DNA of 64,000 nt, taken from IMG/VR virus record IMGVR_UViG_3300009709_000002, positions 296,228-360,227 of that record; one strand, 5' to 3'. This DNA comes from a virus (lineage: Duplodnaviria; Heunggongvirae; Uroviricota; Caudoviricetes). The notes under the pieces are model-generated. The model made no database searches, was not told where the DNA came from, and saw only the letters and a program-made list of their open reading frames with translations. Shown in pieces: positions 1 through 62,444 of the stretch. Position 1 is the first letter of the stretch. Each line of letters begins with the position of its first letter. The translations under genes were made by a program, and so were the position numbers.

Positions 1-256
1 TCTAAATTGACCATATCAACATTCCACTGATCAGACGTAAATGGACATTTAAATTCTACCGGGGTGCCGCCATGGCCAATTCTTGTAGATGCTACACGAA
101 TGTGACTATCATTCACTCCGTTTGTGATAACACCATCTTTAAATTCAACAGGTGTTTTGTAAGCTACACCAAGACTATGAACGTTATTTTCTTCAACAAA
201 TTTAGCCCATTCTTCTTGTGTGACGTTGGCTTCTTTCAGGTATTGTTTGAATCTCA
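1..256 (-). CDS. Family-A paralog, truncated by window edge (N-term MRFKQYLKEANVTQEEWAKF...)
   Basis: Minus-frame translation from ATG at 254-256 overlaps upstream stop (ATGA); N-terminus resembles other Family-A members. Confidence 0.6.
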
Positions 257-835
257 TAGCTTAGCCCATTCCTCAAATCCAGCGTCGATCAATTCATTTT
301 GGCATTCAAGCGTGTCTCTGTCTTTCAAATGCTTTTGCACAATTTTAAGAGCTTCACGCATTTCTTTTGTTGGTATTGAGATGCCTCGAACTTCTTTCAA
401 TGCTGGCCATTTAAGCAGCCCAAGCAGCCCACATTGGAATGCATTAGGCTCTAGGTGATTGAAAGAAACAAATTCAAGAGCATCGGTGCTTATGTCATTT
501 CTCACACGAAGATTTTTGACAGTGCATCCAGAGGTCACCATCAGGTTTTTACAAGGCGGCACAAAGTTAATGTCAAAATTTCCACTGTGAAAGTGAACAT
601 ACTCAAATTCACGATACTGCCATGCATCAGGAGGGATGTCAAAACCATGAGAGCAGTCGATATTAAGCTCATCAACCCAGGACTTCAATTTGATCTTACC
701 ATCTACAATGTCATCAAGAGCTGATTCACGATAGCGCTTATTATTGAACTTGTCAAGAAATTCAACTTTTCGAAGTTCTTCCCACCACTTGCTATCTTCT
801 GGCCTACGACCGCTAGCAATTTCAGCTATCTTCAT
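254..835 (-). CDS. Family-A paralog (LRR-like; C-term CQNELIDAGFEEWAKL)
   Basis: ORF track; shared motifs CGLLxLLK, LKGIEKL, C-terminal CQxELIDAGFEEWAKL; start overlaps neighbour stop. Confidence 0.8.
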   Translation of the reverse strand: MKIAEIASGRRPEDSKWWEELRKVEFLDKFNNKRYRESALDDIVDGKIKLKSWVDELNIDCSHGFDIPPDAWQYREFEYVHFHSGNFDINFVPPCKNLMVTSGCTVKNLRVRNDISTDALEFVSFNHLEPNAFQCGLLGLLKWPALKEVRGISIPTKEMREALKIVQKHLKDRDTLECQNELIDAGFEEWAKL

Positions 836-1416
836 AACTTTGCGAATTCCTCAAAACCTTCATCTAGCAGCTCACTTTGGCATGCCACAATATCTCTATC
901 ACCACGAAGCGCATCATTTAAAATATGCTGCAATTTCATAGACAGTTTTTCATCTAATCCAAAGCTGCCAGGATGAATTGCTATCATTTCTAAAATTGGC
1001 AGCTTAAATAGTTGAAGCATTGGAATTGGTTCAGTTGTGTTAGTCTGTTCAAATGCGATATATTTGAGCTTTGTCAAGTGACCACCGCCTTTTAGAGACT
1101 TCACTATAGATCTGCTAAAGTGCAAGGTCACTACATTAGGCAGATTTTTGAGGTCATCTACTTCAGCCCAATTGAAAATCACAGATGCAACATCCCATTG
1201 ATTTGGGTCAAATGGAAGCTCTAACTTTTTAGGCTTGTTGCCGATAGTTGAAAATGGTGCTATCTTCAATGATGATACAGCGCTTGCAGGCTTGATTTTT
1301 ATCTTGCCATCAAATTCAACGTCGCCCTTAGTAGCTCGAACGCTATAGGCGGCTCTAAATTCCTCCCAATCTTTTTGCGTTCCCTGACTTTCAGCTAAAT
1401 ATTCTCTAAATTTCAT
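832..1416 (-). CDS. Family-A paralog
   Basis: C-term CQSELLDEGFEEFAKL; ATGA overlap with neighbours. Confidence 0.8.
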   Translation of the reverse strand: MKFREYLAESQGTQKDWEEFRAAYSVRATKGDVEFDGKIKIKPASAVSSLKIAPFSTIGNKPKKLELPFDPNQWDVASVIFNWAEVDDLKNLPNVVTLHFSRSIVKSLKGGGHLTKLKYIAFEQTNTTEPIPMLQLFKLPILEMIAIHPGSFGLDEKLSMKLQHILNDALRGDRDIVACQSELLDEGFEEFAKL

Positions 1417-2024
1417 AACTTTGCGAATTCCTCAAAGCCTTCGTCTATAAGTCTAGATTGTGCTTCAACCATGTCTGATTTTTCTTTAAGCAGCTCATTC
1501 AAAAGCGTGTTAAGCTTTGACCCCCAAGCTTGTTCAACTGAAACATTGCGCAAATCACATTTGAGTAATCGAAGTAGACCTGGCTTCTTGATGTGCTCGC
1601 TTGGTCCGCTAATTCTGAACGTAATCGAATCTAGCATATTCAACTTCTCAATTCCCTTCAGTGACTCAATTTGGCAGGTGTGAAAATCTAGATGATTAAC
1701 ATTTGGCACCGTTGAAAAATCATCAAATGACATTAGTTCCATCTCAACACATCCACCAGCTGGTAAGTTCCAGCTGTCACTTGGAAAATCTACATTCCAT
1801 GGTGAAAAATCAGTATCGCCATGTTTTGGTCCTATACAGATGCCATTCCAATTTTTAGTAAGGCAAATTTTACCAGACTTGAATAGCACACCGCTTTTCT
1901 CATTGAATTCTTGCTTACTGTTGCCACCATTATTAGAGTAGTACGTTACTGTAGAATGTGTGTCTTTGAACTTTTTGAACTGTTCAGCAGTAATGCTTTC
2001 AATCAAGAATTGTTTGAATTTCAT
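1413..2024 (-). CDS. Family-A paralog
   Basis: C-term AQSRLIDEGFEEFAKL; N-term MKFKQFL. Confidence 0.8.
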   Translation of the reverse strand: MKFKQFLIESITAEQFKKFKDTHSTVTYYSNNGGNSKQEFNEKSGVLFKSGKICLTKNWNGICIGPKHGDTDFSPWNVDFPSDSWNLPAGGCVEMELMSFDDFSTVPNVNHLDFHTCQIESLKGIEKLNMLDSITFRISGPSEHIKKPGLLRLLKCDLRNVSVEQAWGSKLNTLLNELLKEKSDMVEAQSRLIDEGFEEFAKL

Positions 2025-2599
2025 TGCTTGGCAAATTCCTCTAGGCCAGCATCAATCAGCGCATTCTGACATTCAATGACATCACGGTTACCATCACGAT
2101 AGCGCATTACGATGTGCAGAGCTTTTTCGAGCTTTTCATCATCAAGCTTATGCGCCCACAGTTCTTTGCCGTGATACTTCAGAAGTTGAAGCACGCCACA
2201 ATCAAACTTCACGGCACCGATGAACTCTAGAAGCTGGATGGAATTTACTTCATTGATGCCTTTGAGCGACTTGACACGTGCACCTTCAAAGTTCAAACGT
2301 TGAACTTTTGGAAAGTGGTCAAATCCGTCTAAGATTACGTCGGGGCGTAGAGTGAGCGTGAACTCACCTAGTGGTTTGGTAGAGTGCAGAGGCCAGTAGA
2401 AATTCTTTGGGCTCTTTGCTTCTAGCTTGAGTGATGCGATCGTGTCTAGCAGCTCGCCATCTTTATCGGCCATCAGGCTCGATTTATCTACATCAACGTC
2501 AGTGTAGTCGTGCTTCATACCAGCAGTCACCGTGAAATCGGAAAGCCACTTCTTGATGTCTTTAGTAATTCCGCCGTCAAACAGTTCATTCAGTCTCAT
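2021..2599 (-). CDS. Family-A paralog
   Basis: C-term CQNALIDAGLEEFAKQ. Confidence 0.8.
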   Translation of the reverse strand: MRLNELFDGGITKDIKKWLSDFTVTAGMKHDYTDVDVDKSSLMADKDGELLDTIASLKLEAKSPKNFYWPLHSTKPLGEFTLTLRPDVILDGFDHFPKVQRLNFEGARVKSLKGINEVNSIQLLEFIGAVKFDCGVLQLLKYHGKELWAHKLDDEKLEKALHIVMRYRDGNRDVIECQNALIDAGLEEFAKQ

Positions 2600-2642
2600 G
2601 GAATACTCCCAGATGATTATGGGAGTATTTATGAGTTAGATT

Positions 2643-3218
2643 TTACAGCTTTGCGTATTCCTCATATCCTTCATCGATCAGCTTAGATTGAAAATCGACA
2701 ACATCTTGCTTGTCTTCCATGGCATTTCGTATGAGCTGTTCTAGCTCATGAAGGCTTGCATTTGTAAAGCGTACCTGCTTAAGCTTCTCACACTTCAACA
2801 GCCTGAGAACTCCGCATCGAAAATCACTACGCGCCATGCTAAATCGTATGTCTTCGAGATCTAGCTTTTCAATGCCTTTCAGTGACGTGACCACAGTGTT
2901 TCGGGTCAAGTGAATTTCCTTGGCATTGATCATCGACTCGAAGGTGCTAACCGTGAGAATGCGAGCAGATGTTCCACCGTTGCCTAGCTCAAGGTTATCT
3001 ATCACGTATGGAATGTGAAACGGCCAGTCAAACGCCTCACTGCTTCTTGGCATAATCCCAAGTTCGTGGTATTCTTTAGATGAAAGAAGACCGTTGATAG
3101 CCTCGACGCTTGATGCTCCGCCGGTTTTCTGATTGAAAGCACTTACGTGATATTTTTCTGCGTACTCTTCTTCAGCAGAAGTTACGATCTCATTTAAGAG
3201 GAAGTCTTTGAATTTCAT
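2643..3218 (-). CDS. Family-A paralog
   Basis: C-term FQSKLIDEGYEEYAKL. Confidence 0.8.
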   Translation of the reverse strand: MKFKDFLLNEIVTSAEEEYAEKYHVSAFNQKTGGASSVEAINGLLSSKEYHELGIMPRSSEAFDWPFHIPYVIDNLELGNGGTSARILTVSTFESMINAKEIHLTRNTVVTSLKGIEKLDLEDIRFSMARSDFRCGVLRLLKCEKLKQVRFTNASLHELEQLIRNAMEDKQDVVDFQSKLIDEGYEEYAKL

Positions 3219-3811
3219 AGCGTAGCGTACTCGTCGAGGTCGGCTTCAATCAGTTCATTCTGGCAATCCAAGGCGTTTGATTCACCAAGGTGGCTTCGTA
3301 CAATTGTCAGAACTTTGTGCAGCTTTGGGTTATCCAACTTGATGATAGGTGCCATCTTAAGGTGGTCTAATGATTGACACTTCAGCAGCCGCAAAACGCC
3401 GCACTTAATGTCAGACGACTTAGCAAAAACGAGTGCATTTAACGTTGAGAGCTTCTCAATTCCCTTGAATGACGTAATAGTGGTGTGAAGAAATCGAATT
3501 TCAATAGCTGTTGGCACTTTCTCAAAACCATCAATGATGTTAGAATTTGCATAGTACGCTGCATTGTGGTCAAAGTTGAAAGTCCTTAATCCCTTACCCC
3601 ACCAGCTAGCATCCATTGGCGGATCGAATGTTTGATTTGTGCGATCACTACCAAGGGTAATTTCTTTGTTGTGAAAGTCAAAAGCACCGATTGTATTGAG
3701 AAATTGAAAATCTTGAGACCTTACACTAGTTCCGCCAGATATTTTGTACTTCTTCATCCAATCTTCAAGCGCATTCTTGTTGACATCTTCTAAAAGATCA
3801 CTCAGCTTCAT
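3215..3811 (-). CDS. Family-A paralog
   Basis: C-term CQNELIEADLDEYATL. Confidence 0.8.
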   Translation of the reverse strand: MKLSDLLEDVNKNALEDWMKKYKISGGTSVRSQDFQFLNTIGAFDFHNKEITLGSDRTNQTFDPPMDASWWGKGLRTFNFDHNAAYYANSNIIDGFEKVPTAIEIRFLHTTITSFKGIEKLSTLNALVFAKSSDIKCGVLRLLKCQSLDHLKMAPIIKLDNPKLHKVLTIVRSHLGESNALDCQNELIEADLDEYATL

Positions 3812-4419
3812 AGCTTAGCCCATTCATCAAATCCAGCATCAATGAGAGCTGATTGGCACTCGATAATGTCTGGTTCAGGTTTGCTTTGTTCTTTTACTAC
3901 GATGCTAAGTGCATCTTGTAGTCTGTCATGATTGCCGCTATCAAATTCAATTTCACCGCGGAACTTAAGAAGGCTAAGCAATCCACATTCTACCTTCAGA
4001 TCATACCCGCCACCGTCCATTAGCTCAAGAATTTTAATCTTATCACGCTTCTCAATTCCCTTGAACGTCTTGATGACGACGCCACCTAGATTGAGCTTTG
4101 GCACATTTGGAATTACTGACCAATCATCAAGAATGAAGCCAGGCTTCGTAATGTCAAGCACGAAGAAATGCTTGAAATTTTGCTTTGCAAACGGCCAGAA
4201 GAATTTGTGCTGAACTGAGATGCTTTCAAGATACAAGATCTTGATGTCTGATCGCAGCGTGCCATCTTCGGCCATCAGCTGTTCTACTCTTTGTGCACTA
4301 ACGGGTGAAATGGTCGTAGCACCAAGCCGTCTAAACTTGACGACATAATCACGCATGAATTTTTCAATTCTAGCTTCCATCTCATCACGGTGGATGATGT
4401 GAATTTCATTTAGCTTCAT
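3808..4419 (-). CDS. Family-A paralog
   Basis: C-term CQSALIDAGFDEWAKL. Confidence 0.8.
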   Translation of the reverse strand: MKLNEIHIIHRDEMEARIEKFMRDYVVKFRRLGATTISPVSAQRVEQLMAEDGTLRSDIKILYLESISVQHKFFWPFAKQNFKHFFVLDITKPGFILDDWSVIPNVPKLNLGGVVIKTFKGIEKRDKIKILELMDGGGYDLKVECGLLSLLKFRGEIEFDSGNHDRLQDALSIVVKEQSKPEPDIIECQSALIDAGFDEWAKL

Positions 4420-5021
4420 AGCTTGGCATACTCCTCAAATCCAGCATCAATTAGGTCATCTTGACACTTGATGAGATCTTTATGTTCAAGATGCTTCATT
4501 ACAATTTTCAGAGCTTTTACCAAATTTTTATCTTGCCCAGAAGATTGTTCATTACCGATTTGGAGTGTCTTAAGGTTTGGTATCTTTAAAAGTCTAAGCA
4601 ATCCACTATCTGTGTGCTTGATATGTACGATCATGCTGGTCATCGAAGTGAGTTTTTCTATTCCTGCAAATGAATCTACAACTCCACCTATCGCATACCT
4701 AGAAGCGCCATTCGGAAAGTCATTGAAATTCTTGAACACAAATTGATCTAACGGTCCCCAGATATCACCAGCCGCAAAAGTTCGAATATCATGCAAGTAG
4801 CCAAATGGCCAATAGAATGTTTGAAATCGCAGCTTTGGCATTATTTGAAAAGTTGCAATATCAGGCATGAACTTCCCATCTGGATCAACGAGCGATGTTC
4901 TGCGAGAAATCGACTTCTTAAGATTGCCACCTAGAGTGCATGATACTTTGAATTTGCCAAAGTAGTCTTTTGACAAAGCTACAGCTTGAGCATCTTCTGT
5001 TAGTAGTTCTTTGAGCTTCAT
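4416..5021 (-). CDS. Family-A paralog
   Basis: C-term CQDDLIDAGFEEYAKL. Confidence 0.8.
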   Translation of the reverse strand: MKLKELLTEDAQAVALSKDYFGKFKVSCTLGGNLKKSISRRTSLVDPDGKFMPDIATFQIMPKLRFQTFYWPFGYLHDIRTFAAGDIWGPLDQFVFKNFNDFPNGASRYAIGGVVDSFAGIEKLTSMTSMIVHIKHTDSGLLRLLKIPNLKTLQIGNEQSSGQDKNLVKALKIVMKHLEHKDLIKCQDDLIDAGFEEYAKL

Positions 5022-5719
5022 AGCTTTGCGTACTCCTCAAATCCAGCATCTATTAACGCAGATTGAAGATCGACGATACTGTGACCAGCTTTGAAGCTGT
5101 CATCGATGACCTGGCACAACTTTTCATACTTTACCGATTCGTCATCGTCAAATGAATCTATACTGACGATGTCTAATTTTGGACATTTAGCGAATCTAAG
5201 AACACCACAACTGAGACTCACTCTATGAGATGCGCCGAGCGAAAATCCGCTTAGCGATTTTAACTTCTCGATTCCAGCTAAAGATTTAACTATCAAGTTG
5301 TTTGCATACTGGATTGTGATCATATTCGCGTCTGGGAATGTTTCTAACCCATCAAGCACGTGATCAGTTTTTAAAGTGATGCCTAGCAGTTTTTGTGGTG
5401 CTGGAAACATAGATGGAAATTCTATTTTCTTTCCAGGTAAGAACGTCACGGCCACATTTTCAGGATGCACGTACATCTGTTTCAGATTGCCGTGTTCATC
5501 TATCAGTGAGTGAATCGTCGGTGTCAGCTCGCCAGTTTCGTTATTCAGCCATCCACTTTCATGGTTTGGCTTAGACAAGAACGTCTCTTTATCTTCCGCG
5601 TGATAGTAGATATTATCGCTTGTTCCAGTGATCTTGAAGATGTAACAGTTGTCTACGATCCAGCTTTCAAGCTCATCAGCTTTACTTGTAGATTCTGTTA
5701 GTAGTTCTTTGAGCTTCAT
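5018..5719 (-). CDS. Family-A paralog
   Basis: C-term LQSALIDAGFEEYAKL. Confidence 0.8.
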   Translation of the reverse strand: MKLKELLTESTSKADELESWIVDNCYIFKITGTSDNIYYHAEDKETFLSKPNHESGWLNNETGELTPTIHSLIDEHGNLKQMYVHPENVAVTFLPGKKIEFPSMFPAPQKLLGITLKTDHVLDGLETFPDANMITIQYANNLIVKSLAGIEKLKSLSGFSLGASHRVSLSCGVLRFAKCPKLDIVSIDSFDDDESVKYEKLCQVIDDSFKAGHSIVDLQSALIDAGFEEYAKL

Positions 5720-6372
5720 AGGTGTGCAAAAGGCTCCATCCAGTCATACGAATCAAGCATTTCATTTTGGCAGGCGAGTACGTCTCTATCACCCTTGAGA
5801 TGCTTGTTGATGATCTTTGCTACTTCGTTATTCCACGGTAGAGTGACTTGCTTCAAGCGTGGACATTTCAGCAGACGAAGAACACCCATGCCTTTACGAG
5901 CCTTACCGTCTGGGCCAGGTCCTGCGTAGTACATGTAGAGCGTCTCAAGCTTATTGAGCTTTTCAATGCCTTTAAATGAATCGAACATGTAGTGATCTAG
6001 GCGAAGATCTTTGACGTTTGGTAGCTTCCCAAAATCATCGATCATATAGCCGCTTAGCACGACGTGCTCAACCTTTGATGAATAGCCTTTGACAGGGCAG
6101 TCATCAAATTTGGCTTTACTTCTGGTGCTCATGCTTAGGGAGTCATAACCCTTCTTTACTAGCAGCACACCGTCATAAACGTAGTAGCCATTTGGGTCAC
6201 TATGAACTTTACCGGTGTGGTTATCTTTCGGGTTCATAAGGCTTTGAGACACTGTTTTCGGTTTAGGCACCTGATGACCGTGCAAGAACGCAACCGTTCT
6301 ATTTTCTTTAAGCCATGCTTCAACAGCTTTATCTTCACTTGCTTCTTCTTTGAGTAACTCAATAACTTTCAT
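5716..6372 (-). CDS. Family-A paralog (start moved to internal Met MKVIELL; ATGA overlap at 6369-6372)
   Basis: ORF 5716..6420 overlaps upstream gene; the internal ATG restores the coupled-start pattern seen across the array. Confidence 0.7.
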   Translation of the reverse strand: MKVIELLKEEASEDKAVEAWLKENRTVAFLHGHQVPKPKTVSQSLMNPKDNHTGKVHSDPNGYYVYDGVLLVKKGYDSLSMSTRSKAKFDDCPVKGYSSKVEHVVLSGYMIDDFGKLPNVKDLRLDHYMFDSFKGIEKLNKLETLYMYYAGPGPDGKARKGMGVLRLLKCPRLKQVTLPWNNEVAKIINKHLKGDRDVLACQNEMLDSYDWMEPFAHL

Positions 6373-6962
6373 AGCTTCGCCCATTCTTCTAAGCCAGCAT
6401 CGATCAAATCTGTTTGACAATCGATGATGTCATGTTTTTCACAAAATTCATTCAGCGCACTAGTTAACTTCTGCCCTACGTCCATGTCATCGACAATGTC
6501 TGTTAGATCGATGTCTTCAATCTTCGACTTTACAAATGGAAGAACTCCAATCGGCTCTTGGTTTACTTTGAAGTCTTTGTTAATGACACAGAATGATGTA
6601 GATGATAAGTTCTCAGCGCCCTTAAAGCTCTTGAACGTGCACCCAAAGAATATTAGAGCGTGCTTCACGTTTGGGACTTGCTTCAAGCTTTCAAATTGCA
6701 AGTTGCTAAAGTCGATGCGATCAAATCCTTCTATCTCGCATGGAAAGCCATCAAAATCTTTCTTGTTATCTACGTTGTATGAGCCGACATCCATTCGCAC
6801 AATATTCGATGCGGCGGGTTTTAGCTTTCCACCTTCATAGATAATGTTTGCTCTGTCTGGAGATGAAGTAGCAGAGCTTATCCCAGTCACATTATACTTC
6901 TCAAGGAAGTCCGAAACGCTTTTCGGCATCTCGTCTTCCTTGAGAATTTCTTTTAGCTTCAT
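6369..6962 (-). CDS. Family-A paralog
   Basis: C-term CQTDLIDAGLEEWAKL. Confidence 0.8.
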   Translation of the reverse strand: MKLKEILKEDEMPKSVSDFLEKYNVTGISSATSSPDRANIIYEGGKLKPAASNIVRMDVGSYNVDNKKDFDGFPCEIEGFDRIDFSNLQFESLKQVPNVKHALIFFGCTFKSFKGAENLSSTSFCVINKDFKVNQEPIGVLPFVKSKIEDIDLTDIVDDMDVGQKLTSALNEFCEKHDIIDCQTDLIDAGLEEWAKL

Positions 6963-6999
6963 TTAGAAACTCCAATGTTTAGATGGAGTATTTATGAGC

Positions 7000-7653
7000 T
7001 TACAACTTCGCGTATTCGTCAAAACCTTTTTCAATCAGCTCATCCTGGCACTCAAGCATATTGTTTTCTTTGCCAATGTACTTCTTCACGATCTTGAAAG
7101 CTTCAATCCCCTTCATGTGCGCGTCGGTACCACGGCTACCGCCAGGTCCAAACTGCATCTCGAATTCACCTAGCTTGAGCAATGATAGCAGACCACAATC
7201 AAACGTGGTGCTATTTGAGAAATAGACGTACTCAGGTTTTATCGCAACTAGCTGCTTCAGAGATTTTACCGTGTACGGATGAAAGTATATGTCTTCATAG
7301 TGCAGCTTAGGAAGAACACTTTCATCCGTGAAGACTCCGCCATTCACGTTAATCGCGATAGGATCTTTCAGTTGAGGAAAATAGAATCGAAATTCATCAG
7401 CAGAGATAGGGCAGGCTGACAACGTAGATGAACCATTCTTTACTACGAAGTCAATACCAAAATATTGATAGTTAAGCTTGATCGGCTTACCAATCTGGAA
7501 TGATTTTTCAAGAACTCGCTTTGGATTAGGCAGATTTTTACCATTGCCAATGCGAATTCGAACGTGATCAAACCACCAGGCAATTTGTTCTTCAGAAAGA
7601 GCCATGGTGGAATCATCTTCCTCAGCTTCAAACAGAATTTCTTGTAACTTCAT
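7000..7653 (-). CDS. Family-A paralog
   Basis: C-term CQDELIEKGFDEYAKL. Confidence 0.8.
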   Translation of the reverse strand: MKLQEILFEAEEDDSTMALSEEQIAWWFDHVRIRIGNGKNLPNPKRVLEKSFQIGKPIKLNYQYFGIDFVVKNGSSTLSACPISADEFRFYFPQLKDPIAINVNGGVFTDESVLPKLHYEDIYFHPYTVKSLKQLVAIKPEYVYFSNSTTFDCGLLSLLKLGEFEMQFGPGGSRGTDAHMKGIEAFKIVKKYIGKENNMLECQDELIEKGFDEYAKL

Positions 7654-7693
7654 TAACTAACTCCAATTAAGATGGAGTATTTATGAGCTTACA

Positions 7694-8416
7694 TTACAAC
7701 TTCGCGAAATCCTCAAATCCAGCGTCGATCAGCTCGGTCTGCAGGTCAACCTTACTACGTTCTAGCACAGGCAGCTTCAAGTGCTTGTTGATGATATCAG
7801 CCATCTCATTATGCCGACCAATTCCATCTTCTTTCGAAAAGCTACTGAAAAACATCACCTCTTCCAGAATTGGTGACTTCAACAATTGAAGCACGCCCGG
7901 CTTATGCTCATTCTGATTGCAGTTATACAATCTCAACCTACGAACGTACGTCTTCTCGATCCCTTCAAAGGAGCGCACGTTGCAGTCCACCAGCGTTATG
8001 CCTTGGATGCGCTGGTTGAGCTGATCTAGAGTGGAGAACTTGTACTGGCACAGCGTCATCCACGGTGCTCCCCAGTTAATGTTTCTTGGAACTTCAAATT
8101 CCGTTCCTAAGTTCTTGGCGGTGATCTTGATCTCACTGCTCATGTGGTCGAACTGACGATTCGCCTGCATTCGCCACCAATCGACGAACTCTTTGGCCGG
8201 ATCGCTTTGGTGATTCCGAACTTCTACAGTATTCTTCATGGCGAACTCTCGCCATTGACGTTGGAACTCTAGCTCTTTTTCTTTCTCGTCCAGGAGCATC
8301 ATATCGTTCTTTCCTATGCTACCGCGAAGCGGCGGAAATTTTTCTAAGCACCTAAGAATGATTCTATCACCTTTCATGGTAGAAGTAAAGGATGCTTCAA
8401 CCTTTTCTCGCTTCAA
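7694..8416 (-). CDS. Family-A paralog
   Basis: C-term LQTELIDAGFEDFAKL. Confidence 0.8.
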   Translation of the reverse strand: MKREKVEASFTSTMKGDRIILRCLEKFPPLRGSIGKNDMMLLDEKEKELEFQRQWREFAMKNTVEVRNHQSDPAKEFVDWWRMQANRQFDHMSSEIKITAKNLGTEFEVPRNINWGAPWMTLCQYKFSTLDQLNQRIQGITLVDCNVRSFEGIEKTYVRRLRLYNCNQNEHKPGVLQLLKSPILEEVMFFSSFSKEDGIGRHNEMADIINKHLKLPVLERSKVDLQTELIDAGFEDFAKL

Positions 8417-8979
8417 AGTTCAGCATACTCATCGAGACCAGCATCGAGCATGGCAGATTGGCACGCGACGATGTCACGATCTTTCAAGTGCTTCCTAACG
8501 ATGCCTAACGCAAGCTCCAACCGCGTAGCATGAACGTTGGCGAAGATGATAGCTTCTAGGCGTGGCAGCTTCAGCAATCTCAGCAGGCCGCAATTGAAAT
8601 GGGCTCCATAGTTCAACCCAACAATATACAGCAGCTCTAGATTCTTTAAGCGATCAACGCCTTTTAGCGTTTCCACCTGCAGCCCATGAAGGCTGAGACT
8701 CTTCACCAAGGTAGGAAAGCCTTCCCAATCATTTAAGACAAGAAGCTTCGCCGGTCTGGCCATGATGTCGAGATGGCGTAGGTAAGCCTCACCGAAGGGC
8801 CAGTAGAAGGGATCTTCATTGTTCAGCTTAGGAGACACGATCAAATTATTGATGTGCATGCGAACGTTGTTCTTACTATCAAAGATCGCATCATACCGCT
8901 CGGGTGTTACCGTCGCTTTACCAGGCTCTTGGAGCTCATATTTGTCCAGCCAGTCTAATCCTTCGAGAGCTGTGGTCAT
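8413..8979 (-). CDS. Family-A paralog (GC-richer)
   Basis: C-term CQSAMLDAGLDEYAEL. Confidence 0.8.
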   Translation of the reverse strand: MTTALEGLDWLDKYELQEPGKATVTPERYDAIFDSKNNVRMHINNLIVSPKLNNEDPFYWPFGEAYLRHLDIMARPAKLLVLNDWEGFPTLVKSLSLHGLQVETLKGVDRLKNLELLYIVGLNYGAHFNCGLLRLLKLPRLEAIIFANVHATRLELALGIVRKHLKDRDIVACQSAMLDAGLDEYAEL

Positions 8980-9590
8980 AGCTTGGCATACTCCTCATAA
9001 CCCTTCTCGATGAGCTCCGACTGGCAGGCGATGATATCCCGCTCAGCACCATCTTCAGTCAGGTACGTTTCCACGATCCACAAGACGTCTTTTAGCCGAC
9101 GCTCTACGTTGACGGATCCACAGTTGATCCGGGTCAATTTCGGACACTTCAAGAGCCGAAGCAGCCCGCACGTTATGATTGTTCCATGCTGGTGCCCTTC
9201 AACGTAGAGCGAATGCATGTTTTCTAGCCTCTCCACGTTCTTGAACGTTTCGACGTGTAGCCCAGACAGATGGACGTAACGTACCGACGTTGGCAGCTCA
9301 TCCCAGCTCTTCAGCGCCAAACGCTGGTTAGTATTCTGCATGATGTTGAGAGACACTATATCCGCTTCACCGAACGGCCAGTAGAATCCACGAGGATTTC
9401 CGTAGAACTTGTTCGCCGTAATGTTCAGTTCACAGAAACCGTCGCGCAGCGTCTTCGTCGCATTGTCGAAGAGCTGATCAGCTCTAACCACAGTAATACC
9501 GGTGTCGATGTTGGTCGCCGCAACACCAAAATCAGACATGTACCGAACGATCGACATGTCAGTATCATTGTAGACTCCCGCCGCGCTCAT
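8976..9590 (-). CDS. Family-A paralog
   Basis: C-term CQSELIEKGYEEYAKL. Confidence 0.8.
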   Translation of the reverse strand: MSAAGVYNDTDMSIVRYMSDFGVAATNIDTGITVVRADQLFDNATKTLRDGFCELNITANKFYGNPRGFYWPFGEADIVSLNIMQNTNQRLALKSWDELPTSVRYVHLSGLHVETFKNVERLENMHSLYVEGHQHGTIITCGLLRLLKCPKLTRINCGSVNVERRLKDVLWIVETYLTEDGAERDIIACQSELIEKGYEEYAKL

Positions 9591-9599
9591 AGTAGCTCC

Positions 9600-10229
9600 T
9601 CACAGTTTCGCATATTCTTCTAAGCCTGAGTCGATCAGCTCCGACTGGCAGGCGACGATGTCCTTCAGCTCTAAATGCTTCTTCACGATAGATAAAGCAT
9701 CATGCTGTCTCTTATGCTCACCATCATAAGAAACTCCGATCATCCTCAGCTTAGGTAGCTTCAGCAACCGCAGCACTCCAAGCTCTTCCAACTGGAAAGG
9801 CCGACGCACCGCTCCGTTCAGAATCAGCTCCTCCAAGTTCTGCAACCGTTCAATTCCTTTGAGAGACGACACGATAGTTCCATGAAAGACCAGGCGGTGC
9901 AGGCTCTCAGGAAAATCACTCCACCCCTCCACACGAAACTGCCTAGGAATCATGCCGGTCTTAATGATAAACGAGATCAAGCCAACCGACATCACCTCCA
10001 GCTTCGCGCCGCCGAACGGCCACTCGAACCTTATAGGTTCATCTCCGTCTAGCTTCTGACAAATGTTCACCTTCACGACGTCATCCAACAGCCGAGCGCT
10101 CTTCACGTCAAAGATGTTCAGCAATGACTTCATCAGCTCGCCATTCTTCAGCACCGCGTTGACTTCATAGTCTCTTAGGTAGTCGGCCAGTACGAAAGGA
10201 TGGTTCATAAGCTCTCTTGTCACTTCCAT
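9600..10229 (-). CDS. Family-A paralog (first gene of the array)
   Basis: C-term CQSELIDSGLEEYAKL; followed upstream by a 700-bp noncoding region. Confidence 0.8.
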   Translation of the reverse strand: MEVTRELMNHPFVLADYLRDYEVNAVLKNGELMKSLLNIFDVKSARLLDDVVKVNICQKLDGDEPIRFEWPFGGAKLEVMSVGLISFIIKTGMIPRQFRVEGWSDFPESLHRLVFHGTIVSSLKGIERLQNLEELILNGAVRRPFQLEELGVLRLLKLPKLRMIGVSYDGEHKRQHDALSIVKKHLELKDIVACQSELIDSGLEEYAKL

Positions 10230-36213: not shown

Positions 36214-36300
36214 TGGAGTCCCCGGCCGGAATCGAACCGTAAGCTTTCGCTGCGTTTTCGGCTTTGCAGGCCGCTGTGTGAACCACTCTACCACGGGGAC
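36214..36300 (-). tRNA. tRNA-Cys-like (anticodon GCA) with unusually long variable region
   Basis: Acceptor gtccccg/cggggac plus CCA; loop ctGCAaa; T-loop ttcgatt. Confidence 0.45.
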
Positions 36301-38640: not shown

Positions 38641-38651
38641 ATCAGATATGA

Positions 38652-38741
38652 TGGCGCTGTGAGGTGGACTCGAACCACCTAACTCCCTCGGAACGCCTGC
38701 CCAGATTCCATTGAGGAGCTTTACCGCCTAAGCTACACAGC
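38652..38741 (-). tRNA. type-II tRNA (Ser or Leu; anticodon unresolved)
   Basis: 90 nt; T-arm ggtgg-ttcgagt-ccacc, CCA, long variable arm. Confidence 0.55.
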
Positions 38742-42824: not shown

Positions 42825-43054
42825 TCAAACTGCCTCGCGCTTCTTGTTTTCACGGTACATTTGGCGCTTACGAGCAGCATAGGCGCGGCCGCGATTGTTG
42901 ACGACTTCCTCAAACTGCTTCGTATCTTCATTGAAACGAACACAGGGAATGTCGCCGTGATCAAGAACGAAGGCGTTGTACAGACGGCCTCCGATCTTCT
43001 TGACATGTTGGCACTTGTGACGAATCTTAACACGAATGTCTTTCCAAATTACCA
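42825..43054 (-). CDS. hypothetical small basic protein (start MVIWKD)
   Basis: AGAGGAAAAC RBS. Confidence 0.45.
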
Positions 43055-43077
43055 TGTTTTCCTCTATGGGAGATGTT

Positions 43078-43201
43078 TGGTGGCGCTGGAAGGAATCGAA
43101 CCAACCATGTTTCGCGATAGGCCCACCTATCTGCACGGAATCAAACCGTACCTCGCTACTTCCTCTGGCGAGAGGGTGCTTCCCCAGCTAGCAACAGCGC
43201 C
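43078..43201 (-). tRNA. 124-nt tRNA-like gene with perfect 7-bp acceptor stem (ggcgctg/cagcgcc) plus ACCA and two T-arm-like hairpins; possibly intron- or insertion-containing
   Basis: ggttcgattcc and acggtttgattccgt motifs; cloverleaf could not be resolved by eye. Confidence 0.4.
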
Positions 43202-43209
43202 ATTACAAC

Positions 43210-43479
43210 TTAAGACAGACCACCAATTTCGTTGAGCTTCGGATTCGTCAGCTGAGCCCAGGCATAAAACGCAGTAGGAGCTCGGCTACGAACTTCACGA
43301 AGAACAACCTTGTCTTCTTCCGTCAACGTCTCATTCACCGCACGAGTGGCGATCATCAAGCCTGCGCAGGTCATGATTTCATCACCTGCAACCTTTGCAG
43401 CCTCGCGAAGTGCATTCGTCTTCAACGTTTGCTCAGCGCGTTCAAGTTCTTTCAGACGTACGATCGAAATGTTCGGCAT
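43210..43479 (-). CDS. hypothetical small protein
   Basis: ORF track. Confidence 0.4.
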   Translation of the reverse strand: MPNISIVRLKELERAEQTLKTNALREAAKVAGDEIMTCAGLMIATRAVNETLTEEDKVVLREVRSRAPTAFYAWAQLTNPKLNEIGGLS

Positions 43480-43963: not shown

Positions 43964-43994
43964 AATTATATCAATCTTCTTCAACCTTGTAAAC
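43964..43994 (-). promoter_or_regulatory. T4-early-type promoter
   Basis: GTTTACaaggttgaagaagattgaTATAAT. Confidence 0.55.
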
Positions 43995-55882: not shown

Positions 55883-56066
55883 AACCTGACCAGTTATCTA
55901 CACCAGCACATTCAAGCGCAGTGAGCTTTGCTGAATCTTCACAAAGACTGTTATACTCTTTCTTTGTGATAGTTACCATCTCTTCAGTTGGTGCAACCAT
56001 GTTGTTGTCCTCAGTTTGAATCAGTAAGAGGATTCTAAATCATTTCAACAACATCGTAAATTTATT

Positions 56067-56140
56067 TGGTAGTCCGTTACGGAATCGAACCGTCTTCATT
56101 CGCTAATCGGGCGAAGACCTTACCAATAGATGACCGGACC
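56067..56140 (-). tRNA. tRNA-Ile (GAU)-like
   Basis: Stem ttcgc/gcgaa; loop ccGATta; CCA. Confidence 0.5.
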
Positions 56141-57141: not shown

Positions 57142-57215
57142 TGGTGGGACTGGAGGGTACTGGCCCCTCTTCTACGAGGTAAAAGCTCGTTGCTTCACTT
57201 TAAAGCTTCAATCCC
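57142..57215 (-). tRNA. tRNA-Lys (UUU), unusual T-loop
   Basis: D-arm gctt-taaagtg-aagc; stem acgag/ctcgt; loop ctTTTac; aCCA. Confidence 0.6.
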
Positions 57216-61262: not shown

Positions 61263-62444
61263 TTAACCGTCGTCACGAAGCAAGAATGCTTCCATCGCAC
61301 GTTGGCACGCCGAAATTCTTGCAGCTTGCAAGAGAATACCAACATGAGGTCCTTGCTCACCAGGAGCTACTACATCAGCTGTTATCAGAGCCGCGATTTT
61401 TGCCGAATACAACACCAAATCTGATGTCATTTCAGGAACTTCGCCAAGCAATTCATACAGCAAGAGCGGATTCAGGTTAGTGAACCAGACCGGAGTGCGC
61501 CAGACGCCGATGAACTTCAACGTCTTGTGAAGACCGACAGCAGTCATGCCGTTCGCCAGCTCGTCACCGATGCTGATGAGCATGTTCGCATCATTGATCG
61601 CGCTGCTCTGCATCTTGATGTCGGCGAAATCAGCATTGCGATTGAACGCCGAGATCACCGCAAGCATACACGAAACAAACTCGGACTCCGACAGCTCATC
61701 TTCATGATCTTCGATAAGCTGAATCGAGTCGAAGATCATAGCAATCCGCGAGTATTTCATGTCACCAAGCCACTTCTTGAAGAAGCTCACGGTCCGCACG
61801 GCGTCGACCAAGAACAGCGTGTGGAAGAAATTCATCGGGTGCGGTTCAATGAACGCACGGGTGATTTCTTTCCAGTAGCGCTCGTGAGAAACTTCATCGA
61901 GCTCACCAGATTTGATGACTTCCTTGCAAAGCTCGATCGTGTCTGGTGCGATCGTGAAGTCGAATCTGGCAGCGAAACGTGCAAGCCGCAAGACACGCAG
62001 CGGATCTTCCGAGAAAGCTTCCGATGTGTGTCGCAAAATGCCGCTATGGAGATCATCTTCACCACCGAACGGGTCGATCAGTGTGGTCAAACCTTTGTTG
62101 GGAGCTGGGATGATCGTTCCATCTTGCTTCACGACGGAAACTTCATACGCCATCGCGTTGATAGTCAAGTCGCGGCGGCGCAGATCATCTTCAATCGTCA
62201 CGCTCGAGTCAAAAGCCGTCTCGAAGCCGTGATAGCCGACGCCGACCTTGCGTTCAACACGAGCCAACGCCCATTCATCGCCAGTTGTAGGGTGAAGGAA
62301 CACTGGGAAATCTGCACCAACCTGCTTGAAGCCGAAGCTCACCATTTCTTCAGGTGTCGAGCCGACAACGACATAGTCGACGTCTTTCGGCTTGCGGGAC
62401 AACAGCATGTCCCGCACAGCTCCACCAACAACATATACTTTCAT
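61263..62444 (-). CDS. cca: tRNA nucleotidyltransferase (CCA-adding enzyme), class II
   Basis: GGAVRDMLL...DVDYVV head motif and RRRDLTINA motif B. Confidence 0.8.
   Translation of the reverse strand: MKVYVVGGAVRDMLLSRKPKDVDYVVVGSTPEEMVSFGFKQVGADFPVFLHPTTGDEWALARVERKVGVGYHGFETAFDSSVTIEDDLRRRDLTINAMAYEVSVVKQDGTIIPAPNKGLTTLIDPFGGEDDLHSGILRHTSEAFSEDPLRVLRLARFAARFDFTIAPDTIELCKEVIKSGELDEVSHERYWKEITRAFIEPHPMNFFHTLFLVDAVRTVSFFKKWLGDMKYSRIAMIFDSIQLIEDHEDELSESEFVSCMLAVISAFNRNADFADIKMQSSAINDANMLISIGDELANGMTAVGLHKTLKFIGVWRTPVWFTNLNPLLLYELLGEVPEMTSDLVLYSAKIAALITADVVAPGEQGPHVGILLQAARISACQRAMEAFLLRDDG

Follow-up and report, generated by a model that had tools for sequence, protein, structure and literature searches.

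A conserved family of predicted anticodon-less tRNA-like RNAs with an embedded T-loop module in two groups of large phages

In a 64,000-nucleotide (nt) stretch of Caudoviricetes DNA, hereafter the window (IMG/VR record IMGVR_UViG_3300009709_000002, positions 296,228 to 360,227), we focused on a tRNA-like RNA gene on the minus strand at 43078-43201. An earlier note on this DNA had flagged the gene as about 50 nt too long for a tRNA. Our comparative analysis indicates that the gene is real and belongs to a conserved, hitherto undescribed family of tRNA-like RNAs that lack an anticodon and carry an embedded T-loop/UGGG module, so that the surplus length resolves into a tRNA core with roughly 45 extra nt of conserved structured RNA. 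The family is known from an uncultured large-phage lineage and from T4-like Aeromonas phages. We consider the structure of the RNA well supported by sequence comparison, and the RNA is very probably a functional structured RNA that does not decode.

The window RNA is 124 nt long with its terminal ACCA, and RNA position n corresponds to window position 43202-n. Its first part reads GGCGCUG UU GCUAGCUGGGGAAGC AC CCUCUCGCCAGAGG AAGUA GCGA GG, and the remainder reads UACGGUUUGAUUCCGUG CAGA UAGGUGGGCCUA UCGC GAAACAUG GUUGGUUCGAUUCCUUC CAGCGCC ACCA. All of its parts lie on the minus strand. The tRNA core consists of an acceptor stem, U8, a D arm with GG, and a T arm. As the earlier note had described, GGCGCUG (RNA 1-7; 43195-43201), which is preceded by a U at -1, pairs perfectly with CAGCGCC (RNA 114-120; 43082-43088), and the 3' strand is followed by a discriminator A and CCA (43078-43081). 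The D arm (RNA 10-24; 43178-43192) has a 3-bp stem, GCU/AGC, and the loop AGCUGGGGA with the conserved GG. The T arm (RNA 97-113; 43089-43105) is GUUGG-UUCGAUU-CCUUC, that is GUUGGUUCGAUUCCUUC. The T-loop sequence reported in the earlier note, GGUUCGAUUCC, is present, but the stem that carries it is not canonical, since it contains two U.U mismatches in the window lineage.

The remaining parts of the RNA lie between the D arm and the T arm. Hairpin A, CCUCU-CGCC-AGAGG (CCUCUCGCCAGAGG; RNA 27-40; 43162-43175), occupies the anticodon-arm position, 1-2 nt past the D stem across the family, and has a tetraloop instead of an anticodon loop. It is followed by linker L1, AAGUA (RNA 41-45; 43157-43161), which is AAKUA across all members. 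The 43 nt between L1 and a second linker, L2, form a three-way junction in which helix P encloses two hairpins, B and C'. Helix P is made of GCGA (RNA 46-49; 43153-43156) and UCGC (RNA 85-88; 43114-43117). Hairpin B (RNA 51-69; 43133-43151) is T-arm-like, with a 5-bp stem and the loop UUUGAUU (UACGGUUUGAUUCCGUG, UACGG-UUUGAUU-CCGUG); it is the second hairpin that the earlier note had drawn as GUACGG-UUUGAUU-CCGUGC, and we confirmed it. Hairpin C' (RNA 73-84; 43118-43129) is UAGG-UGGG-CCUA (UAGGUGGGCCUA). Linker L2, GAAACAUG (RNA 89-96; 43106-43113), contains an invariant GAAAY and leads into the T arm.

Relatives of the window phage were sought through the 89-amino-acid (aa) open reading frame (ORF) that flanks the RNA. 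Two other assemblies (L001 and L002) carry an identical RNA, whose diverged versions are found in L003, L004 and L011. A further copy, at L156:782-907, belongs to a closely related phage whose flanking 89-aa protein is 99% identical to that of the window. The L156 RNA differs from the window RNA by three substitutions. Two of these are a compensatory change of G46-C88 to A-U in helix P (ACGA/UCGU), and the third turns the UGGG loop into UGAG, in a C' loop that is otherwise invariant. A scan of viral contigs for two T-loops 20-50 nt apart led to L110, which is Aeromonas phage Aeh1, and blastn traced the element to 13 records of Aeromonas phages, among them Aeh1, Ah1, avDM12-TAAL, AsFcp_1/2/4, PX29, phiAS5 and phiWae14. 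In the deposited records the element is unannotated in Aeh1, and its 5' part is labelled 'tRNA-OTHER' in PX29 and 'tRNA-Ala' in phiWae14. The Aeh1 genome paper lists merely '3 pseudo' tRNAs (PMC1524935), and we found no description of the element in the literature.

Altogether there are nine distinct homologues. Five, with the window copy counted, come from uncultured relatives of the window phage (window, L156, L003, L004 and L011) and four from T4-like Aeromonas phages (Aeh1, PX29, phiAS5/phiWae14 and Ah1). A covariance model (CM), R1, was built from four metagenomic copies only, and it scored the Aeromonas-phage copies at 69-78 bits (E of about 1e-17 to 1e-21). Because R1 contained no Aeromonas copy, the homology is not an artefact of the search pattern. 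The window copy matches R1 and a second model, R2, over its full length at 122 and 120 bits, respectively, as it must by construction, since it was included in both models. The RNA is 89-96% identical at the nucleotide level, versus 71-78% for the adjacent coding gene.

Other searches found no further members. There is no close relative of the window genome among deposited phages, and a search of viral contigs with the 89-aa protein returned nothing. Comparing the region with the phage collection by megablast and blastn gave just short T-arm matches to tRNAs. The patterns GGTTCGATTCCTTCCAGCGCCACCA and AGCACCCNCTCGCCAGNGG(AA) gave chance matches alone, in GC-rich coding DNA, in viral and metagenome contigs. 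Narrow DNA patterns likewise gave chance matches alone in the genome collection, with no bacterial copies in the genomes scanned. Two candidates were discarded: L154 is a chance match in a Planctomycetota metagenome-assembled genome, and L153 is a tRNA-Leu followed by a fragment and not a family member.

The window sequence alone proves nothing, because its single-sequence fold energy is unremarkable (z = -1.03). Folding had been proposed in the earlier note as a check, and it gave this weak result for the single sequence while the comparative fold was supported. We tested covariation on a CM alignment of eight distinct members for six helices (acceptor, D, A, P, B and T). Across these helices 97.8% of cells were paired, and 16 of 29 pairs showed changes on both sides. 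The covariation score was 0.59 versus 0.22 in shuffles, and none of 500 shuffles reached the observed value; slid controls were at most 51% paired. RNAalifold independently recovered the arms, with six helices in all, from the first four sequences. The conserved structure that the earlier note had proposed to look for with covariance models was thus found. As judged from these alignments, we conclude that the comparative evidence is decisive for an RNA beyond chance.

Each helix contributed to this result. MAFFT misaligned the 5' half when both clades were aligned, so CM and hand-curated alignments were used instead. In the hand-curated tRNA register all seven acceptor pairs differ between the clades; in the CM alignment, where the Aeromonas copies are shifted by one base, three acceptor pairs change on both sides. 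The D arm is 100% paired, with pair 11-23 being CG in five sequences and UA in three, and the Aeromonas copies have a canonical 4-bp D stem. Hairpin A is also 100% paired, with two-sided changes at four of its five pairs. Members of the window clade have CGCC as the loop of this hairpin; PX29, phiAS5 and Ah1 have AUCG, and Aeh1 has UAGCC. Helix P is 100% paired with three of four pairs covarying (UA/GU/AU/GC, CG/UA and AU/GC), and the stem of hairpin B is 97.5% paired with two covarying pairs. In the hand-curated alignment every member retains the three inner pairs of hairpin C', and the window copy shows changes among them. A longer hairpin C (RNA 70-89) that we had drawn earlier was replaced by helix P and the short C', since its outer part was less supported by covariation. 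The T stems of the relatives are fully paired and covary (GCAGG/CCUGU, ACUGG/CCAGU, GUUGG/CCAAC and GCUGG/CCAGC).

Across both clades the most conserved parts are L1, L2, the B loop and the C' loop, the last of which reads UGAG in L156 and (A)UGGG in the other eight members. The B loop, UUUGAUU in the window and UUCGAAU or UUCGAUU in the relatives (overall UUYGAWU), fits the T-loop consensus U54 U55 Y56 G57 A58 N59 U60 with a closing G53-C61 pair. Unconserved between the clades are the sequence of loop A, the discriminator (A or C), the first acceptor pairs and the 3' end (ACCA, ACCC or CAAC).

We compared this architecture with that of a decoding tRNA. The 7-bp acceptor stem closed by the 5' and 3' ends and followed by a discriminator is present, as are a D arm with G18 G19 and a T arm with the loop UUCRANY and G53-C61. 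A 5-bp anticodon stem with a 7-nt loop (U33, an anticodon and a purine at 37) is missing from all nine homologues. Hairpin A offers no anticodon loop, because all members have just 4-5 nt there and the covariation follows the tetraloop register. Hairpin B has a 7-nt loop; from its match to the consensus, the U at would-be position 37 in three of eight members and its enclosure by helix P, we infer that it is a T-loop and not an anticodon loop. The window copy also has every feature by which we define the new family: acceptor, D arm, short-loop hairpin A, AAKUA, helix P enclosing the T-loop and UGGG hairpins, GAAAY and T arm.

Standard annotation does not recognize the element in the window. 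ARAGORN made no call at the locus, and Rfam matched no model there at the gathering threshold or at E<=10, so the Rfam check proposed in the earlier note was negative. The window holds 30 ARAGORN tRNAs and one more called by Rfam alone, all on one strand with the RNA. The element resembles canonical tRNA (RF00005), especially class II tRNA, in its 7-bp acceptor, U8, D-arm GG, T arm UUCRAWU and G53-C61, in having extra structure between the anticodon-position arm and the T arm, and in the CCA end of the window phage. The phiWae14 copy even passes the Rfam tRNA threshold, scoring 40.4 bits against RF00005 through its acceptor, D and T arms alone. However, the element has a 4-5-nt loop and no 7-nt anticodon loop, is 117-121 nt long, and in place of a simple hairpin its variable region forms a 43-nt three-way junction that includes a T-loop of its own.

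The closest analogues we found are T4 RNAC, the tRNA-like domain of transfer-messenger RNA (tmRNA) and mascRNA. T4 RNAC (species 1) and RNAD (species 2) are small stable RNAs of 119-139 nt that lie beside tRNA genes and have no known function (PMC3014915, PMC9697503). In RNAC, a T arm accompanies an acceptor-like stem that contains two U.U mismatches, and CAAACA stands just past the 3' end, but the second T-loop hairpin and the P/B/C' module are missing; RNAD lacks a T arm. Neither R1 nor R2 matched T4 70908-71171, which holds rnaC and rnaD, and we treat these RNAs as analogues and not as demonstrable homologues. The tmRNA tRNA-like domain, including its reduced mitochondrial forms, shares the acceptor/T-arm module and a replaced anticodon arm that does not decode. 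In contrast to tmRNA, the element lacks G3.U70 (pair 3-70 is C-G or G-C), a tag frame and pseudoknots, and its D stem is a true one. ARAGORN in tmRNA mode and the Rfam tmRNA models found nothing, and we rejected a tmRNA identity because G3.U70 is missing, a D stem is there and 121 nt leaves no room for an ORF. mascRNA/MALAT1 elements and the bacterial YrlA module, a tRNA-mimicking part of Y RNA, also have a tRNA shape with a shortened or absent anticodon loop, and they are handled by tRNA enzymes or mimic the T/D elbow. They come from other organisms, show no sequence or CM similarity and lack a second T-loop module in the variable region; YrlA gave a 17-bit sub-threshold match on a neighbouring region.

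The RNA lies between two small minus-strand ORFs. Upstream is the 89-aa ORF (43210-43479), which has no family match and is syntenic with the RNA solely in the window clade; no counterpart stands beside the RNA in Aeh1. Downstream is a 76-aa ORF (42825-43055), whose ribosome-binding site and start follow the CCA of the RNA, the start at 22 nt. The 76-aa protein is widespread yet unlinked to the RNA elsewhere (L005, L006, L024-L026). A promoter-like site, TTTACA-17-TATAAT with a TG extension (43965-43993, minus), matches the consensus at 11 of 12 positions, as a consensus match only, and with a terminator-like site (42441-42421, minus) it brackets a putative minus-strand operon of a 149-aa ORF, the 89-aa ORF, the RNA, the 76-aa ORF and further genes. 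Because the RNA is inside this putative operon, behind the upstream promoter-like site, it would have to be cut from a polycistronic transcript.

Several features bear on processing of the ends. The U at -1, found in the window clade, fits RNase P processing. The hexamer CAAACA lies 2-3 nt beyond the acceptor 3' strand in every family member, and a leader, GUU(U)G, that can pair with this trailer is conserved in all of them. In the window the hexamer (43074-43079, minus) overlaps the discriminator and CCA, the two together spanning 43074-43081. The 3' end region is ACCAAACA in the window, ACCCAAACA in L003, L004 and L011, and CAACAAACA in the Aeromonas phages. CAAACA also stands behind T4 rnaC (L149, about 1901-1908), and it may be a processing signal. 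In Aeh1 the leader-trailer pairing extends the acceptor helix to about 15 bp. CCA is encoded in the window lineage alone, the relatives having ACCC or CAAC, and 26 of the 30 ARAGORN tRNAs of the window phage encode it as well. The maturation of the RNA may differ from that of ordinary tRNAs. A CCA-adding-enzyme-like ORF (PolyA_pol head and RNA-binding domain; 61263-62444, minus) lies beside the tRNA cluster, in which those 26 tRNAs nonetheless encode CCA.

The reading that we favour, with modest confidence, is that the gene specifies a stable, non-decoding tRNA-like RNA or tRNA mimic that is excised from the operon transcript. The RNA would be co-transcribed with the flanking small ORFs and then released by tRNA-processing enzymes. 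The T-loop of hairpin B would probably dock with the GG of the C' loop in the way that tRNA T and D loops dock, which would create a second 'elbow' beside the normal one. As a mimic, the RNA could bind a factor that reads tRNA shape or elbows, and candidates for this factor are processing or modification enzymes, the ribosome and host tRNA-targeting defence. We hold this mechanism of tRNA or elbow mimicry, which is drawn from shape, more tentatively still, at slightly less than an even chance. The two clades do not share the discriminator, the first acceptor pairs or the 3' end, and selection has therefore probably kept a function of the RNA body, not a specific aminoacylation identity.

A number of observations weigh against this interpretation. 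The function is read from shape alone, and the B and C' loops are almost invariant, so there is no covariation to bear on their docking. The loops also depart from expectation in places, L156 having UGAG in C' and the window B loop having a U at the position equivalent to C56, and the window T stem, GUUGG/CCUUC, is non-canonical at its two U.U mismatches. While the unconstrained minimum free energy (MFE) structure of phiAS5 is identical to the comparative fold, in the other members the comparative fold lies 7-14 kcal/mol above the nearest-neighbour MFE. Nearest-neighbour energy models leave tertiary contacts unscored. No neighbour protein is common to both clades. The Aeromonas clade, with no encoded CCA and an extended acceptor helix of about 15 bp, fits poorly with simple RNase P/CCA maturation, and the 'CCA' of the window may partly be a by-product of the CAAACA motif.

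An alternative is that the element acts in cis as a form of punctuation. The tRNA-like fold would recruit RNase P and 3' processing enzymes, which cut the operon mRNA between the 89-aa and 76-aa genes and so set the stability or translation of the flanking cistrons, and the released RNA would have no function of its own. The position of the element suits such a role, since it lies within an operon, 8 nt past one stop codon and 22 nt ahead of the next start, as do the U at -1 and the conservation in all members of the CAAACA trailer with its complementary leader. Moreover, tRNA-like processing signals of this type are known, MALAT1/mascRNA being one. However, a plain tRNA-like minihelix would do for this purpose, yet the 45-nt P/B/C' module, AAKUA and GAAAY are the most conserved parts, and in the Aeromonas phages two more tRNA-like genes, and no ORF, follow the element. 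We conclude that a cis-acting processing signal is possible but unlikely, and that it leaves the conserved module unexplained.

The earlier note had also raised an intron- or insert-containing tRNA. On this reading the transcript would lose P/B/C', or hairpin A with L1, as an intron-like or mobile insert, and the mature RNA would be shorter. The idea of an insert survives to the extent that the extra part sits at the variable-region position; the intron does not, as no deletion restores a canonical tRNA, given the 4-5-nt loop at the anticodon position of all nine homologues. In an exhaustive single-deletion scan ARAGORN returned only 'tRNA-???(gc)', with a 2-nt anticodon, in all four sequences, or an artefactual tRNA-Ser. 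The calls of its intron mode were inconsistent, Rfam gave no group I intron or ribozyme match, and the supposed insert is the best-conserved part of the RNA. The ARAGORN intron and tmRNA modes and lowered thresholds yielded inconsistent calls of low quality, such as an 'inner' tRNA-Ser in L011 that has a mismatched acceptor stem, and we discarded them. There are precedents for such inserts, in that the adjoining Aeh1 and PX29 genes include a tRNA with an insert of about 48 nt, annotated 'joined', and many viral contigs have tRNA-like genes whose inserts hold a T-like hairpin at various positions. We regard removal of an insert from the RNA as very unlikely.

Could the gene still encode a decoding tRNA-Ser? 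Hairpin B would then be the anticodon arm (UGA or CGA), the next hairpin a class II variable arm, and hairpin A an extra arm at position 26. In favour of this, either anticodon would read serine codons, the tRNAs called in the window include none for serine, and deletion of about RNA 25-50 makes ARAGORN call a tRNA-Ser(CGA) on the true acceptor stem in L003, L004 and L011. The call is automatic, however, because any T-loop UUCGAAU reads 'CGA', and the window copy with the same deletion is not called tRNA-Ser. Position 37 of a tRNA is essentially always a purine, but the corresponding base would be U in the window, Aeh1 and Ah1. Helix P, which covaries, surrounds B, and an 'anticodon arm' built on B would thereby gain 4 bp or more; the hairpin spaced from the D arm as in a canonical tRNA is A rather than B. 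Bacterial tRNA-Ser typically has G73 as its discriminator, where the element has A or C. We find a serine tRNA highly improbable. Finally, a tRNA pseudogene in decay, or duplicated 3' halves of tRNAs left behind at an attachment site (the latter being close to the integration-site remnant suggested in the earlier note), might be argued from the '3 pseudo' tRNAs that tRNAscan-SE gave in Aeh1 (PMC1524935), the U.U mismatches of the window T stem and the 39 of 134 double-T-loop sites elsewhere (among the matches listed) that are a tRNA followed by a T-arm fragment, but it is effectively refuted by the covariation, given compensatory changes in every helix, even between phages with a 99% identical flanking protein, conservation across unrelated phage groups and above that of the adjacent coding gene, and the lack of bacterial copies in the genomes scanned.

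With a non-decoding tRNA-like RNA as the preferred reading, the family is of interest in that it is supported by covariation, is unable to decode and is yet retained in two unrelated groups of large phages, where standard annotation misses or mislabels it. Phage tRNA genes are now viewed as tools against host tRNA-targeting defences and for translation tuning. To our knowledge, stable phage RNAs of the RNAC/RNAD type have been without an assigned function for about 50 years. In structural terms the RNA would be a natural tRNA scaffold with a second T-loop/'D-loop' module. Because the family is present in the cultivable phages Aeh1, PX29, phiAS5 and Ah1, its expression, processing, charging, partners and knockout phenotypes are directly testable.

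A general scan for double T-loops covered at least 120 viral contigs and gave 134 sites among the matches listed. At least 93 of these 134 lie outside any ARAGORN tRNA, and at least 30 of the 93 or more are closed by a perfect 7-bp stem. We observed many uncalled elements of about 100-140 nt in tRNA-rich phage contigs (L027-L145) that combine an acceptor stem and a T arm with an internal T-arm-like hairpin, which is often followed by a UGG or UUGG loop. Examples of double-T-loop elements are L023:366-489, L019:9559-9667, L035:719-833, L089:2587-2700, L118:4786-4899 and L129:1673-1789, and in L023 and L019 the order of arms is as in the family. With R2, L023, L019, L118, L129 and L089 score 29-51 bits versus about 27-34 bits for ordinary tRNAs. 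Several elements exceed this baseline, but at such scores we do not claim them as members and treat them as look-alikes. It is conceivable, though we rate it as doubtful, that our element is the first recognized member of a broader phage class of 'two-elbow' tRNA mimics, built of a tRNA scaffold and an autonomous T-loop/GG-loop module. In such a class the module would sit in the variable region here and possibly in L023, L019, L035 and L089, and in the anticodon region in other phages. Its members would engage or sequester machinery that reads elbows, such as RNase P, the CCA-adding enzyme, ribosomal sites and host defence nucleases or transferases that target tRNAs.

We also noted insert-bearing tRNA-like genes of other kinds. 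L083:3871-4021 and L120 (minus, about 5774-5936) hold tRNA-Thr(UGU)-like genes with AT-rich inserts of 75-90 nt directly past the anticodon, and each insert contains a T-arm-like hairpin within a 9-bp stem. In Aeh1 two more tRNA-like genes of about 120 nt lie directly downstream of the family member (L147:1709-1829 and L147:1845-1963; likewise in L146 and L148). The last of these is a tRNA with a structured insert of about 48 nt 5' of the anticodon loop. Its anticodon is UCA in Aeh1, UAA in PX29 and CAA in phiWae14, and it is annotated inconsistently, as tRNA-Val(CAC) or as a 'joined' tRNA-Leu.

Elsewhere in the window, a 92-nt tRNA-like gene ending in CCA (38650-38741, minus) adjoins tRNA-Arg(UCU). 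Its acceptor, D and T arms are canonical, and as an 'anticodon arm' it has a long stem (CCUC-AAU-GGAA...UUCC-GAGG) closed by a 12-nt loop. Neither ARAGORN nor Rfam calls it, and it may be a second anticodon-less tRNA-like RNA of the window phage. ARAGORN missed two other minus-strand tRNA-like genes. One, at 56065-56140, has the loop CCGAUUA, with C at position 33, and ends in ACCA; the other, at 57145-57215, is called by Rfam alone at 41.7 bits. In an 87-nt 'tRNA-Cys(GCA)' (36214-36300, minus) the variable arm is long and class-II-like, an unusual trait in tRNA-Cys, and odd D arms occur in several more tRNAs of the cluster, such as Asn(AUU) and Lys(CUU). Apart from the tRNA cluster, sixteen consecutive head-to-tail ORFs of 188-240 aa (254-10229, minus) look like a large tandem array of paralogues.

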